From the sequence record NC_023593.1: a stretch of 64,000 bases of DNA; one strand, given 5' to 3'. This document shows, in pieces, positions 27,101-60,099 of the stretch; the first letter of the stretch is position 1; every line of letters starts with the position of its first letter. The notes under the pieces are model-generated. The model saw only the letters and a list, made by a program, of their open reading frames with translations, was not told where the DNA came from and made no database searches. The position numbers and the translations under genes were made by a program. The stretch is from Escherichia phage KBNP1711.

Positions 27101-27586
27101 TCAATGTGTGTGATTCCAGTTTAATCCTATCTGACAATCAGATGCCAGAGGACATTCCATCTTGAGGTACTCACCAGCTTTCTTAACACAAAGCTCTGTA
27201 AGCTCTTTTAGCTTTTGTGCATCATTACGGTGAACAGAGAACTGCCCTTCATCGTGCATGTCAATAACCTTCGCACAACGAACACCATCACGCTCAATCC
27301 ACTTGTTAAGGAAAAGCATGGCATACTTCATAACAATCGCACCAGCACTCTGTAATAGGGTATTCAGTGCTTTATGAACCATTACCTTACCTGTTGCATC
27401 ACGTCTCATTGTAACACGACGACCATCAACACCCAAGATATAACCTTGAGCTGCCTTCTCTGTCATACGTTCAATAAGAATTGCAATACAAGGATTCTCT
27501 GCCAAGAAACGTGCTCTCATTACTGCACCTTCTTCAGAGCCTCCACCAACGATAGAACCGAGCTTAGCATCACCTGCCCCATCAAT
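27101..27586 (-). CDS. DNA polymerase (family A, T7 gp5-like), exon 2 / C-terminal part
   Basis: Reading frame open upstream of the track Met gives ...IDGAGDAKLGSIVGGG... then HKALNTLLQSAGAIV and HDEGQF (motif C), colinear with T7 DNA polymerase after motif B; 5' boundary approximate. Confidence 0.65.
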   Translation of the reverse strand: MDGAGDAKLGSIVGGGSEEGAVMRARFLAENPCIAILIERMTEKAAQGYILGVDGRRVTMRRDATGKVMVHKALNTLLQSAGAIVMKYAMLFLNKWIERDGVRCAKVIDMHDEGQFSVHRNDAQKLKELTELCVKKAGEYLKMECPLASDCQIGLNWNHTH

Positions 27587-28367
27587 AGTTCAAGCAAAGG
27601 CGCTACTCTTTGCTCCGTTCTCTTATGAACTGCTTACAGTTTCCTGTAAGATCGGACTATATCTTCATCTCCACCTTTACGTGCTGAGAGACAGGCGCTT
27701 CCGTAACACTTGTTACGTACTCCCTTCCGGGATAGTCTCTGAACTTTCCGTGACACAAACTTTTCTACATAGATCAATGAACTGAGCATCAGATAGTTTA
27801 CCTTTTGCATTATTCACTTCCCAAGTTACCCATTGGACATTTCCAATTTCGTAACCTTTCGAATTATCCTTCCTATCTAAAGAAAGTTTATTCGGATGTC
27901 CGCTGACGAAAGATAGTGAATCTCCTGTCAAGGCACATTTGTAGTTTTGCTGAGAAAGAAGCTCGAATAAATAGTCTTGAGTAATCGTGAACTCAAAACC
28001 CCTTTCTCTAGCTCTGTGATGGGAGTTGTGATATCTCTCACGAACCGCTCCACCCCAAGTTTGTCGATATTGTCCCATAGCAGCAGATGCTGCACTTCTG
28101 TTTCGACGTCTCCACTCATTTGAAGCAATGAGAGCACAATTTTTTACATTGACATTGCTTTCCATCTTTACTCTTAGATGAATTATGGAAACTGTCGAGT
28201 GGCTTTTCTTCGCCACAGCTTGAACATATCTTTGTCATAAACACCTCCTTGTGTTGATGTTTATGTCACGGCTTAGCTGCTGATTGGCATATCTTTCGAC
28301 TTAGCTTTCCAGCAATTCACCTGTTTTGCTTCTGCACATTTCTATGCAGTGAACCAATTATTTAGTT
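27587..28367 (-). mobile_element. intron (group I-like) carrying an HNH homing endonuclease ORF, inserted at polymerase motif B
   Basis: Polymerase frame broken by stops between ...RDNAKTFIYAF and IDGAGDAKLG...; intervening ~780 nt has its own RBS and endonuclease ORF; boundaries +/- about 10 nt. Confidence 0.55.
27713..28238 (-). CDS. intron-encoded HNH homing endonuclease with apparent frameshift
   Basis: ATG 28238 with AAGGAGGTG RBS encodes MTKICSSCGEEKPLDSFHNSSKSKDGKQCQCKK then stops; HNH domain (HNSHHRARERGFEF...DRKDNSKGYEIGNVQWVTWEVNNAK) continues in another frame after an A6 run near 28140. Confidence 0.6.
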
Positions 28368-29729
28368 AAAGGCATATATAAATGTCTTCGCATTGTCACG
28401 AGTAGGAAGACCAGCAAGTCTCTGATTATGAGAATGGATATCACCTTCTAACAGAATATCACGATACATAACAGCAGAAGCTAAACCACGTTCAGCTAAT
28501 GCTTTCTTACCAGCGTTACCTTCTGCAATTGCTTCAGCAAGCATGTCTCTACACTCTTTAATGAGGTAGTGAGCAAGCATACGAAGCTCTAATCCAGAAC
28601 CATCATAACCTAGGAAGAGTTCTCTACCAGCTGGTACATAATACTTATATAACCCTACTGGTTTGTCTTTCTTTCCGGGTTTTCCACGTTCGTAGATAAC
28701 GTTTGTATTTTTTCGTAAGTAACACCCATCAGGGATATTGTTGGTAATGATGAAAGGATAGTTATGACTATCATCTGTGGAGTAGTTAGATTGAAATAAA
28801 CTCCTACACTCGTGACCAAACAGACCGCGAGAAGGAATATTAACAACAATGCGATGTTTAAAACGAAATGTCGGAGTAGCGCAGCTATTAGCTTCCGCTG
28901 AGAGTTTACCATCTGGACGTTCCTTATCAATCAGTCCATTAATCAAGCCTAGTCTGTGAGCCGCTACAACACGTCTCTTAAGCAGACTTCCCACCTTACC
29001 TAGATCACCCTCAAGACCTTCTTCAAGAGTCTCTTCGAGGTTTGTAGGAGCTGTGGGCCACTTGTTCGAAGTAGCTAATGCTCTCTTAATTTCATCAAAG
29101 GTTACAGGTTTCTTCCTGTTAGGGTTTAAACCTAAACCAAAGACATAAGCCTTCATGTAGTTGACAGTTTTGTGACGAAAGTGCTTATCCAAGAATTTCT
29201 TGATATCAGCATCAACCATCTGAGCTGTCTGTCGCTCTTTCTCATTGCCACGCATCCAAGAGTTGTACCATTCTTGATACGTTCCACACTTACGCAAGGC
29301 TCGCTTAATCTCAAATGTGTTCCAAGGCTTCTTAGATGTATTAAATTCTGGAGGAAGAAAACCTTCATCCATCAGTGCTTCTTTAACTCGTGCATCCTTT
29401 GATGGGTCAAAGTCAACATACTCAACACAAGTAAAAGCTCCACCGATATCTTCCCTCTTTAACCCCACTCTGTCACAATATAATTGAGGCCACTTCTGAA
29501 GAGCACCAGTCTTCTTAAAGGGTTTCATGTAAGTAGAACCATCAACCCTCATCTTAGGTAACAGAGGAATCAGCTCTCTGTCGATGTTAACGATAATCTC
29601 TCTGAGAAGGTGAACATACCACCGTGCATTCCTCCGATTAAAGTTGACACCACTCTTCGCTTGCTTTGAAATTATATCAGCGACAGTCATCTCCGTTAAG
29701 AACGGAAGTACATCAGGGTTCTCCATCAC
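28368..29729 (-). CDS. DNA polymerase (family A, T7 gp5-like), exon 1: polymerase domain through motif B
   Basis: GYDGSGLELRMLAHY (motif A) and LPTRDNAKTFIYAF (motif B/O-helix) align with T7 gp5 GIDASGLELRCLAHF / LPTRDNAKTFIYGF. Confidence 0.7.
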
Positions 29730-30119: not shown

Positions 30120-30398
30120 TCACCCCTTAGGAAAAGGAATCAACAAATCAACTGCTGCTTGAATATCTTCTTGCACTTTAGGGTTTTTGTAAGAAACAAA
30201 ACGGCCTTTGCTGTCTCGAAGCATCACATTAGTGCGGGCAGTTTCTTTAAACATTAAGATATTTTCAGCGGCATCCCTCTCTTCCATCATACCAAAATCC
30301 ATAATATCTTCTGGAGCTGAGGCGATTTTGAGCTTGAAGGTCTGGCCTGTGCCGTTGTCGTAACGATCACTGATCTGGATAGTTTTCACCAGAGACAT
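30120..30398 (-). CDS. hypothetical protein (tandem paralog of 30400..30657)
   Basis: Shares TARTNVxLR..G.F.SYKN..V.......L.PFPKG with neighbour. Confidence 0.45.
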   Translation of the reverse strand: MSLVKTIQISDRYDNGTGQTFKLKIASAPEDIMDFGMMEERDAAENILMFKETARTNVMLRDSKGRFVSYKNPKVQEDIQAAVDLLIPFPKG

Positions 30399-30399
30399 A

Positions 30400-30657
30400 T
30401 TAAACTCCTTTAGGGAAAGGAAGAAGATTTTCTACTGCAACACGATAAACCTTTTCTACGTTTTTGTTTTTATAAGAGATGAACTTGCCATCAGCACCAC
30501 GAAGGATTACGTTAGTTCGAGCTGTCTTTGGGTTATGAGAAATCTGATTAGCAATGATAGACGCGTTAAGAGCATTCTCAGCATAATTAGTGAAGTTCCA
30601 TTTAACAAGTTTAGTAGAAAGAGAATCGATGATAGTTACAGTTTTTACGATAGACAT
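30400..30657 (-). CDS. hypothetical protein (tandem paralog of 30120..30398)
   Basis: Shared motif as above. Confidence 0.45.
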   Translation of the reverse strand: MSIVKTVTIIDSLSTKLVKWNFTNYAENALNASIIANQISHNPKTARTNVILRGADGKFISYKNKNVEKVYRVAVENLLPFPKGV

Positions 30658-30691
30658 ATTTTATTACCTAAAGGATTTGTATAAAAGAAAA

Positions 30692-30711
30692 GGCCACCCA
30701 AATGGGTAGCC
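30692..30711 (-). terminator. hairpin ggccaccc-aaat-gggtagcc with T-rich tail on - strand
   Basis: Intergenic; same GCCACCC stem family as at 22773 and 55503. Confidence 0.35.
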
Positions 30712-47106: not shown

Positions 47107-47913
47107 TTACGCTACCTGTAAACGTTTCAAGAACACATCTGCTTCACGAACATCGTTGGTGTTGATGATCTGGTGCAGCTTTTCAATCGGAAGGCGAGAG
47201 TGGAGGCTCATCAAGAACTCCATGTCGCTATTTTGTACAACCTTGTCAACTTGATCGTACACGAATTGACGATCTTCTTTCTTGCCAATCCAGAAGTTCG
47301 ACAGAGAGCGATACTCAATGCCATAAGGTTTGTAACGGATTGCGGATGCTTTACCGTACAGCTCTTTACGTCGAGTATCACCATCCATCAGAACAGCAGG
47401 CAATGACAGGAAGTAATCACACAGAACGCCCAGCATCATCTGAACCTTCTTATTCACATCCAGAGAGCCAGTGACACCAATGTGCACATGACCACCTGCT
47501 GTACGCAAGCCCTTGTTCTCTGAAGTTGGAGAAGCATTCTTTTGACCAGTGAATGCGTTGAAGTCTGGAGTACAACCAAACACGAAAGCGGACGGATGGA
47601 ATGATTCCAATTCCTCTTTAGAGAAGATATGAGAACTTACACCCAGAGCCGCTTCCATGTCCTGTTTCTTCAGAACTTCGTTGGTAAGATCAATACCGCG
47701 CTGAACGTTGTCATTAAACGCTTCAAAACCTTGTTGTGGGTTGATATCAAACTCAGCCAGCACGTTGTCTTCTTGGAGACGTACATCCTTAGCCAGATCG
47801 ATTTTATTTTCTTTAGAACAACCCAGCTTGCCAGCAACAGAGGTGATGATGCCAGAAGAAGTACGAACAAACATCTCTGGGTCCGTTCCAATTAAAAAGA
47901 TGCGCTTAGTCAT
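47107..47913 (-). CDS. glutamine synthetase/GCS2-like amidoligase candidate
   Basis: Internal Met start MTKRIFLIGTDPEMF and RTAGGHVHIG motifs. Confidence 0.45.
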   Translation of the reverse strand: MTKRIFLIGTDPEMFVRTSSGIITSVAGKLGCSKENKIDLAKDVRLQEDNVLAEFDINPQQGFEAFNDNVQRGIDLTNEVLKKQDMEAALGVSSHIFSKEELESFHPSAFVFGCTPDFNAFTGQKNASPTSENKGLRTAGGHVHIGVTGSLDVNKKVQMMLGVLCDYFLSLPAVLMDGDTRRKELYGKASAIRYKPYGIEYRSLSNFWIGKKEDRQFVYDQVDKVVQNSDMEFLMSLHSRLPIEKLHQIINTNDVREADVFLKRLQVA

Positions 47914-59199: not shown

Positions 59200-60099
59200 T
59201 TATGCTGCGTTACGTGCTGCCATGATCTCAGCTGCCTTGCGCAATACTTCTTCTTCCTCAGCTTTTGCAGCTTGTTCGGTACGGATTGCTACCGTTGAAG
59301 AGATACGACCGCGCAGGCTTTCTAACTTCTCCTGCATTTTGGCAATGGTGGATTCCATTTCATCGGCATACGAATCCAGTGATTCCAGTTCCTTGCTTGA
59401 TGCGTTCATCAGATAATCATCAGAGATCGCTACCGTTGAAGCCGTGACTTTCTTGATGAGTGAGTCAAAGGACTTCTTAACCTTGCCTACTTCTTCACTC
59501 AGGGCAATAGTATTATCACTGGTAGCGCCGTTACGCTCATCAGCCAACAATTTTGCTTCAATACGGATTGCATTTAAGCGTTCAACCAAAGCGTAAATAT
59601 CTTGGTTAAAATCTTCCTTGTTTTTCGCCGGGATTTGCAGGTGTGCCGCCACGTTGTCATTGCAACCCTTGTAAAAGTTAGGGTTATCTACTTCAATTTC
59701 ACGACCTAACGCAAAGTTTTCGAAAGCGTTCGACCAGCGAGCGCGATTCTGTTCCATTTTGGCCTTAATTTGCGCTTCTTTCGCATCTTCTTTCGCTTTC
59801 GCTTCACCTTCCAGATTAATCCACTTTTTACGACCGTTTGCCGCATCGGTGTTAAACTTGACAGGAGTCAGGAAAGTGATTGCAGTGGCGATCACATCCA
59901 TATCACGAAAACGCTCGGTTAACAGAAAATCGACCGCCGCCTGCAATACGTCTAACTTTTTACCGTTGCTGCGGAAGTGCTGCAAATGACCTAACAGAAA
60001 ATTAGAAACATCTTGCTTAATCGCCGCGTTATTGCTACGAATGTTGTTAGCCAGTGCGTTAAAACCAGACTCTTTTACCAGATTAAAAATTTTAGCCAT
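59200..60099 (-). CDS. hypothetical protein (300 aa, helical, Ala/Lys/Glu-rich)
   Basis: ATG 60099 with AAAGGTG upstream; track start 60108 is GTG; first gene downstream of the ORF-free region. Confidence 0.5.
   Translation of the reverse strand: MAKIFNLVKESGFNALANNIRSNNAAIKQDVSNFLLGHLQHFRSNGKKLDVLQAAVDFLLTERFRDMDVIATAITFLTPVKFNTDAANGRKKWINLEGEAKAKEDAKEAQIKAKMEQNRARWSNAFENFALGREIEVDNPNFYKGCNDNVAAHLQIPAKNKEDFNQDIYALVERLNAIRIEAKLLADERNGATSDNTIALSEEVGKVKKSFDSLIKKVTASTVAISDDYLMNASSKELESLDSYADEMESTIAKMQEKLESLRGRISSTVAIRTEQAAKAEEEEVLRKAAEIMAARNAA

Follow-up and report, generated by a model that had tools for sequence, protein, structure and literature searches.

A frame-split gene for a predicted PacI-like homing endonuclease in a group I intron of the Escherichia phage KBNP1711 DNA polymerase gene

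The polymerase intron and its endonuclease gene

The DNA analysed here (called the window) is a stretch of 64,000 nt from the genome record NC_023593.1 of Escherichia phage KBNP1711, which is Kuravirus-like, comes from South Korea and has a genome of 76,184 bp that was deposited in 2013 and for which a Kuravirus review table gives no genome paper (PMC9965538). In the phage collection searched, the nearest genomes were those of EP335 (94.3%) and KarlSchell_Bas89 (94.1%), the latter called Bas89 below. The locus of interest, all features of which are on the minus strand, is a family A DNA polymerase gene interrupted by a group I intron that houses an endonuclease gene lying in two reading frames (Table 1).

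Table 1 Features of the polymerase intron locus in window coordinates.
Feature	Position	Strand	Basis
DNA polymerase (family A) exon 1, ending ...AAG ACA TTT ATA TAT GCC TTT AAC T	28364..29726	-	ORF list; alignment of the spliced product to EP335 and T7 motif B
Group I intron, 781 nt	27583..28363	-	Rfam RF00028; junction checked against EP335
DNA polymerase exon 2, starting AT GGG GCA GGT GAT, which completes the Tyr codon (...FN/YGAGD...)	27101..27582	-	ORF list; EP335 and T7 alignments
Endonuclease cassette in the P6a terminal loop, 477 nt here and 476 nt in intact copies	27776..28252	-	LAMP alignment
Shine-Dalgarno sequence AAGGAGGTG, 3 nt (TTT) before the ATG	28242..28250	-	Read from sequence
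5' endonuclease fragment, frame 0: ATG 28238..28236, 40 codons plus TGA 28118..28116	28116..28238	-	Sequence; ORF list; tblastn
3' endonuclease fragment, +1 frame: 142 codons plus TAA 27715..27713	27713..28141	-	ORF list; tblastn; family alignment; structure model
A6 run with one surplus base	28140..28145	-	Alignments with relatives
Private substitution 9 nt after the A6 run, CGC/CGA (Arg) to CTC (Leu)	28131	-	Alignments; private-substitution scan
ATG of the 150-aa GenBank 'endonuclease' (MESNVNVKNCALIAS...), out of frame inside the 5' fragment	28163..28165	-	Exact match to YP_009008745.1 / AHI60828.1

The ORF upstream of the intron ends in ...AKTFIYAFN and a stop codon at 28362, and the polymerase frame reopens near 27582. 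The 5' splice site follows the U of AACU (...TTTAACT, 28364), which pairs with GGUU in P1, and the last intron base is the G of ...CTATTG (27583; ...CUAUUG in the RNA). The junctions have the G.U pair in P1 and the terminal G of a group I intron, and removal of the intron restores the host frame exactly. The spliced polymerase aligned without gaps to the intron-less EP335 polymerase (614 aa), with 609 of 615 residues identical, across KTFIYAFN/YGAGDAKLG, where the slash marks the splice junction. In EP335 the region around the intron site reads ...TTTAACTATGGGGCAGG... Rfam model RF00028 matched both intron ends of the window (48.1 and 34.7 bits), neither half reaching the gathering score, as the match is split by a long ORF. 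The ORF-less intron of LAMP, which is 99.5-100% identical to the core of the KBNP1711 intron, gave 100.8 bits against a gathering score of 50. Since KBNP1711 was propagated and depends on its polymerase, the intron in the polymerase gene is presumably self-splicing.

Upon alignment with T7 DNA polymerase the intron was found to split the codon that matches T7 Tyr530, one of the motif B residues (R518, K522, Y526, Y530); T7 Y530 corresponds to Klenow Y766. An in-frame TAA lies almost directly after the 5' splice site (AAC T/AA ATA A, 28359-28366) and hence unspliced mRNA would yield a polymerase truncated in motif B. The Pf-WMP3 intron also has a stop right after its 5' splice site (PMC3428280). 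The intron sites given for phage Pol A genes in the 2012 I-PfoP3I paper are E. coli Pol I positions 674, 676, and 881 (PMC3428280). As the motif B Tyr530 site is absent from that list, the KBNP1711 intron occupies a different insertion site, and a literature search for Kuravirus introns gave nothing relevant. The element is of a known kind but had not been described before, and it combines a new polymerase insertion site with a nuclease predicted to be PacI-like.

The intact endonuclease gene of relatives has 174 codons and sits inside the intron P6a loop, the stem around the cassette being 5'-CCGUGACAUAAAC (loop) GUUUGUGUCACGG-3', whereas in the window the gene is in two pieces. The last 20 codons of the gene overlap the intron core. 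An earlier note, made from the letters of this DNA alone, had described a strong ribosome-binding site and an ATG at 28238 opening a frame that stops at 28116-28118, a second ORF at 27713-28216 and a switch between the two at TGT-AAAAAA-TTG-TGC; all of these coordinates and translations proved accurate. The frame 0 translation of the 5' fragment is MTKICSSCGEEKPLDSFHNSSKSKDGKQCQCKKLCSHCFK, which contains the N-terminal CxxC...CxxC zinc module as far as Cys31. The +1 frame is open from 28216 through to its TAA, and the 3' fragment holds a helical region plus the beta-beta-alpha-Me core (D121 R122 ... G128 Y129 ... N133 ... N142 ... K145). The frames meet at TGT (28148-28146), AAAAAA (28145-28140), TTG, TGC and a peptide spanning the frame junction would read ...QCQCKNCALIASNEWR.

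When the 174-aa Bas89 endonuclease was used as a tblastn query against the window, two adjacent HSPs in different frames were obtained, one of residues 1-32 with 100% identity (28238..28143) and the other of residues 31-174 with 98.6% identity (28147..27716). Therefore, the ORF pair is not a chance arrangement but one gene. Bas89, whose annotation has the endonuclease as one intact CDS (525 nt, 174 aa), is 99.5% identical to the window over the intron and is one base shorter, having A5 where the window has A6. These data establish the anatomy of the split gene and bear out the proposal of the earlier note that an intron endonuclease gene is frameshifted at the A6 run, the host being the polymerase group I intron. 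The note had also proposed that removal of one base would join the two parts to read CKKCALIAS. The surplus base was confirmed, although not that junction: relatives read ...CQCKNCARIAS... at the shift site and have A5 and thus the surplus base in the window is an A (A5 to A6). The repaired KBNP1711 protein would therefore read ...CQCKNCALIAS...

The public KBNP1711 annotation appears not to recognize the polymerase intron (27101-29729). Exon 2 is given as a 'DNA polymerase' of its own with 139 aa (AHI60827.1), and for the endonuclease a protein of 150 aa is listed that starts at the internal out-of-frame ATG. Three further proteins encoded in the window are likewise exact matches to KBNP1711 accessions. 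In the GenBank annotations of Bas89 and LAMP the polymerase exons are joined. The KBNP1711 record could be corrected on three counts: the unannotated intron, the polymerase given as two CDSs and the endonuclease started at an out-of-frame ATG.

The nuclease and its relatives

Pfam and NCBIfam assigned no family to the endonuclease and no Pfam HNH model matched it. In PHROGs residues 1-171 fell within one family, phrog_1035 (E = 1e-43), and the N-terminal Cys module alone matched modules that open other phage HNH proteins. Hence, both window fragments derive from a single protein. An invariant core is seen in the family alignment, CALTG ... S-[L/I]-D-R-x-D ... G-Y ... N ... N-x-x-K, within which D121-R122, G128-Y129, N133, N142, and K145 are invariant or nearly so. 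The position of the catalytic histidine (the first H of H-N-H, at the end of strand 1) is occupied by Arg122 in all 19 of the family members, whereas Tyr129, located in the loop between the strands, is nearly invariant.

Among proteins of solved structure, a family profile search ranked PacI first (E = 0.005), the core aligning with VDRSDSFEGY...N...CNRIK of PacI. An AlphaFold model (mean pLDDT 84.4) shows two strands (117-122 and 134-138) and a helix (139-145), the arrangement of the beta-beta-alpha-metal fold, and a Foldseek search with the model returned PacI as best match (E = 2e-4), with Cas9 HNH domains and HNH nicking enzymes such as that of Gme next. The PacI-type enzymes, group 20 of the His-Me fingers, are without the catalytic His and rely on a tyrosine of the loop between the strands (PMC5714182). 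The KBNP1711 family shares the features of that branch, having no His, a conserved loop Tyr and retained metal-binding Asn residues. Given the alignments and the structure model, the endonuclease is predicted to be a His-less PacI-like variant of the HNH (His-Me finger) enzymes, and by analogy Tyr129 may have a catalytic role. The description of the product as a typical HNH endonuclease in the earlier note is therefore right at the superfamily level (the fold is that of the superfamily), but the protein is not typical, since no Pfam HNH model matches, the His is absent and the relationship is to PacI.

The resemblance to PacI (PDB 3ldy/3m7k) extends to the D-R ... G-Y ... N ... N-x-x-K core, to Arg in place of the catalytic His, to the conserved Tyr in the loop that supplies the PacI nucleophile and to an N-terminal Cys-rich zinc module. 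In contrast, PacI is a bacterial rare-cutting restriction enzyme whereas the KBNP1711 nuclease is intron encoded, identity is only about 17% and the TM-scores are modest (0.43/0.52).

A search of 5.8 billion protein clusters showed the endonuclease to belong to a small family of proteins of 170-174 aa with 83-98% identity. In the 90% cluster that contains the KBNP1711 product, 14 of the 15 listed members (of 19) have 170-175 aa, the KBNP1711 entry being the only truncated one. Comparison with homologous endonuclease genes, which the earlier note had put forward as a check, gave a continuous endonuclease ORF in Bas89 and in each of the 25 metagenome loci fetched (at least 23 distinct contigs; loci and contigs are designated by L numbers below). 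The near-identical alleles have A5 and then CTCG[C/A]. In diverged alleles the site of the A-run reads AAGAAT or AAGAGT in the DNA, and AAAGAT is implied by other protein variants. Exact-pattern scans for the A5 and A6 alleles gave zero matches in IMG/VR and in JGI metagenomes, and a protein-guided scan of IMG/VR found a single distant relative of 28% identity. An uncalled stretch in L038 was considered as a second broken copy and rejected, since it is an ORF-less intron.

The dN/dS ratio among diverged intact endonuclease alleles was 0.10-0.16, and pN/pS was about 0.17 in the 33 codons before the shift site. These ratios (dN/dS about 0.1) indicate that the intact endonuclease gene of the relatives is under purifying selection. 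Judged from the alleles compared, selection maintains the gene at full length in a single frame, and the KBNP1711 record alone has the split.

Distribution and mobility of the intron

The intron with an intact homing endonuclease gene (HEG) was found in Bas89, L016-L025, L030, L031, and L037. LAMP and five metagenome contigs (L032-L035 and L038) have the same intron lacking exactly the 476/477-nt cassette (28252..27776). This ORF-less intron is 304 nt long, and in the five contigs intron positions 1-111 and 589-781 are contiguous. Contigs with an identical neighbor gene, gp044, show four states at the polymerase locus: intron with intact ORF (L030, L031, and L037), ORF-less intron (L032-L035 and L038), no intron (L039; EP335 is also intron-less) and, in L036, a different insertion of about 696 nt (L036:3218-3915) located ~15 nt upstream of the KBNP1711 intron site. 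The L036 insertion has an ORF of 164 aa that is 28% identical to the KBNP1711 endonuclease family (LDRVDSDKGY...N...NRIK). As the two insertions are only ~15 nt apart, the motif B region looks like a hotspot for different intron/HEG pairs. The endonuclease gene thus has the setting of a homing endonuclease gene, a peripheral intron loop, the intron being mobile and polymorphic for presence and absence at one site, and the gene product is a predicted homing enzyme.

Recent horizontal spread of the intron was established by the disparity between intron and exon 1, the signature of homing. Across comparisons the intron is 99-99.7% identical where exon 1 is ~80% identical; in L016, L017, L019, and L023-L025 the intron is 99.0-99.4% identical to that of the window whereas exon 1 is only 80.5-81.5% identical. 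In L019 the identity to the window rises abruptly from 80.5% over exon 1 to 99.0% over the intron and is 97.5% over exon 2, a jump that is consistent with recombination or with a co-conversion tract brought in with the intron.

Goddard and Burt are said to have modeled the life cycle of HEGs as invasion, fixation, degeneration and loss, reportedly drawing on eukaryotic organellar introns. The likeness here is that an empty site, an intact HEG, a frameshifted HEG (KBNP1711), and an ORF-less intron are all found at one site; the difference is that the degeneration stage is represented by one record, which may be an artefact. Known phage systems of this type are the group IA2 Pol A introns with HNH HEGs, namely those of I-HmuI (SPO1), I-HmuII (SP82), I-BasI (Bastille), I-PfoP3I (Pf-WMP3), and I-TslI (T7-like PhiI/W31). 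The KBNP1711 element differs from these in its site (the Tyr530 codon), in its PacI-like nuclease (I-HmuI-type nucleases are presumably HNH_3-like) and in having a frameshifted gene. It resembles them in that an essential phage Pol A gene is broken within a conserved motif by a group I intron, presumably self-splicing in KBNP1711, and in that the ORF begins in P6a and extends into the core, with a stop directly behind the 5' splice site (PMC3428280).

A further insertion, located in polymerase exon 2, is found in many relatives (L016:4718-5744; also L006, L007, L017, L021, L023-L025, and L031). It carries a 131-aa HNH_3 gene (Pfam E = 9e-12) that divides the C-terminal part of the polymerase into pieces of 95-98 aa and 51 aa. 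It is missing from the window, in which 27101-27520 is uninterrupted. Two contigs that carry the exact PhoH protein of the window end within the intron, L027 after 133 nt and L028 after 47 nt; such contig breaks arise in assemblies when intron-plus and intron-minus or ORF-less variants coexist.

Origin of the frame split

Only two window-private positions are present in the 781-nt intron, the A6 run and 28131. They are 9 nt apart, and the chance of such closeness is about 2-3%. Apart from these two positions, the closest intact introns, those of L020 and L022, are the same as that of the window. Site 28131 belongs to an Arg codon (CGC/CGA) in all nine close relatives that cover it, and Arg or Lys occupies the position of the private Leu in all 18 of the close homologs covering the site. 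No intact allele with the private Leu (CKNCALIAS or CKKCALIAS) was found among 15 billion proteins. In the shifted frame the change is silent (TCG to TCT). No copy of the changed 20-mer was found elsewhere in the window at up to three mismatches and hence the linked pair of changes is not accounted for by gene conversion from a paralogous copy. Inspection by eye found no quasi-palindrome that could template both.

We favor, with modest confidence, real decay by a non-programmed loss-of-function frameshift in the homing endonuclease gene. A sequencing or assembly artefact deserves serious consideration, although we hold that explanation only tentatively: the phage would have A5 and an intact gene, the consensus would have over-called the run and perhaps a G 9 nt away would have been miscalled. 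Changes in homopolymer length are a classic consensus error of 454, Ion Torrent, and Nanopore sequencing, and a +1 change in one of the longest homopolymer classes of the window (no run in the 64 kb exceeds 6, and there are 11 A6, 8 T6, and 3 G6 runs, hence 19 of A/T) is what such an error would give. The A6 allele comes from a single record, a 2013 submission with no genome paper in the review table cited above, and is unique among more than 25 related sequences; moreover, two private changes 9 nt apart, the only differences from the L020 and L022 introns, are as expected of a poor-quality patch. However, of the 110 Bas89 CDSs checked in the shared region, 92 have intact single-frame orthologs in the window and the endonuclease gene is the only one that is frame-split, the other 17 flagged CDSs having either no match (11, of which seven are free-standing HNH genes) or a partial, divergent or paralogous one (six). 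The window has 116 A/T runs of five or more and only a single A5 run falls in the endonuclease gene, so that a random homopolymer error would strike this gene about once in 116 times (about 1%), whereas real frameshifts persist only in dispensable genes such as a homing endonuclease gene. Over ~11.4 kb around the locus, comparison with the closer relatives gave roughly 45 window-private substitutions (0.4%) and, outside one hypervariable patch, no window-private single-base deletions, in a scan that did not reliably score window-private insertions and missed the known extra A. A G-to-T miscall is atypical of homopolymer-prone platforms and, were only the A wrong, the intact gene would have Leu where others always have Arg or Lys. 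That same change from Arg to Leu is expected if the gene was already dead and its constraint relaxed. A private divergence of about 0.4% would leave time for a frameshift mutation, and the ORF-less and intron-less relatives with identical gp044 indicate that the KBNP1711 lineage can lose the endonuclease gene. The extra A is thus probably in the phage DNA and not in the record alone, and the enzyme is probably inactive.

The remaining explanations retain a function for the split arrangement. The earlier note had offered programmed +1 frameshifting as one reading, and in its general form programmed recoding would be +1 frameshifting on AAA-AAA-U or transcriptional slippage on A6 that keeps the nuclease low. 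A-runs are known slippery sequences, a tRNA-Lys on AAA in the P site would pair equally well after moving one base downstream and the resulting CKNCAL... fits the family sequence. Nevertheless, the two-frame layout is not conserved, every homolog being a single continuous frame, and the diverged alleles keep no slippery run (AAGAAT, AAGAGT, AAAGAT). Since the split is unique and the A-run is not conserved in diverged alleles, programmed frameshifting was rejected. The context is also unfavorable, in that the next 0-frame codon is UUG with the stop eight codons downstream, no 0-frame stop or rare codon is found at the site and inspection found no SD-like stimulator before the A6 run. E. coli RNA polymerase slips efficiently at runs of about 8-9 or more, and A6 is shorter than these. 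Having neither a conserved arrangement nor a stimulatory context, programmed recoding is scarcely credible. A real but leaky A6 allele, in which occasional +1 slippage or loss of an A from the transcript would restore CKNCA... and give a trickle of full-length nuclease, is hardly less improbable; were it true, a single-base homopolymer change would be an attenuator or on/off switch for an intron homing endonuclease. It is quite unlikely, although the least so of these three, that the gene is split but partly functional, with the 150-aa product (from the ATG at 28165) or both fragments together keeping nuclease or homing activity. The downstream frame retains the whole beta-beta-alpha-Me core plus the helical region, and the ATG, annotated by the depositors, has a weak AAGAG upstream. 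However, the 150-aa product would be without three of the four conserved zinc ligands (C5, C8, and C31) and would open with nine out-of-frame residues, its start codon is within an upstream ORF that is itself translated, no relative is so arranged and the product is recorded only from KBNP1711. A functional 150-aa GenBank product is thus unlikely.

Real decay would proceed as follows. The group I intron in the essential family A DNA polymerase gene houses, in its P6a loop, a mobile gene for a predicted PacI-like HNH homing endonuclease, and one A would have been gained in the A5 run of that gene. Ribosomes starting from the strong ribosome-binding site and ATG would read 40 codons and halt at the UGA, giving a 40-residue peptide with an incomplete zinc module (C5, C8, and C31 of the four conserved Cys, C34 being lost), and the nuclease domain in the +1 frame would not be made at useful levels. 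As the extra A is in a peripheral loop, the intron RNA would be unaffected whether the change is real or an artefact, and therefore polymerase expression and phage viability would be untouched. The allele would represent the degeneration stage of the HEG life cycle, at which a dispensable selfish gene loses function, and a neutral Arg-to-Leu change 9 nt downstream would have followed or accompanied the frameshift.

A broken or mis-sequenced homing endonuclease gene is in itself a routine finding. The near-identical Kuravirus-like phages, however, show every stage of the homing cycle and offer a compact natural system for the gain and loss of introns and HEGs in coliphages.

Several other differences between the window and its relatives were observed. 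Seven free-standing HNH genes of Bas89 have no counterpart in the window. Bas89_0084 (HNH), which is placed within the 5' end of a ligase gene whose parts the annotation joins, is exactly missing from the window (47888-47910 versus Bas89 59440-59921), and an overlap of 23 nt between the alignments on either side suggests that a short target was duplicated. At 30120-30700 the window has two small paralogous ORFs in tandem, of 92 and 85 aa, both ending ...LLPFPKG. The hypervariable patch mentioned above is at 30495-30700, where the window differs from all seven of the relatives that cover it at dozens of positions, which suggests recombination or diversifying change.
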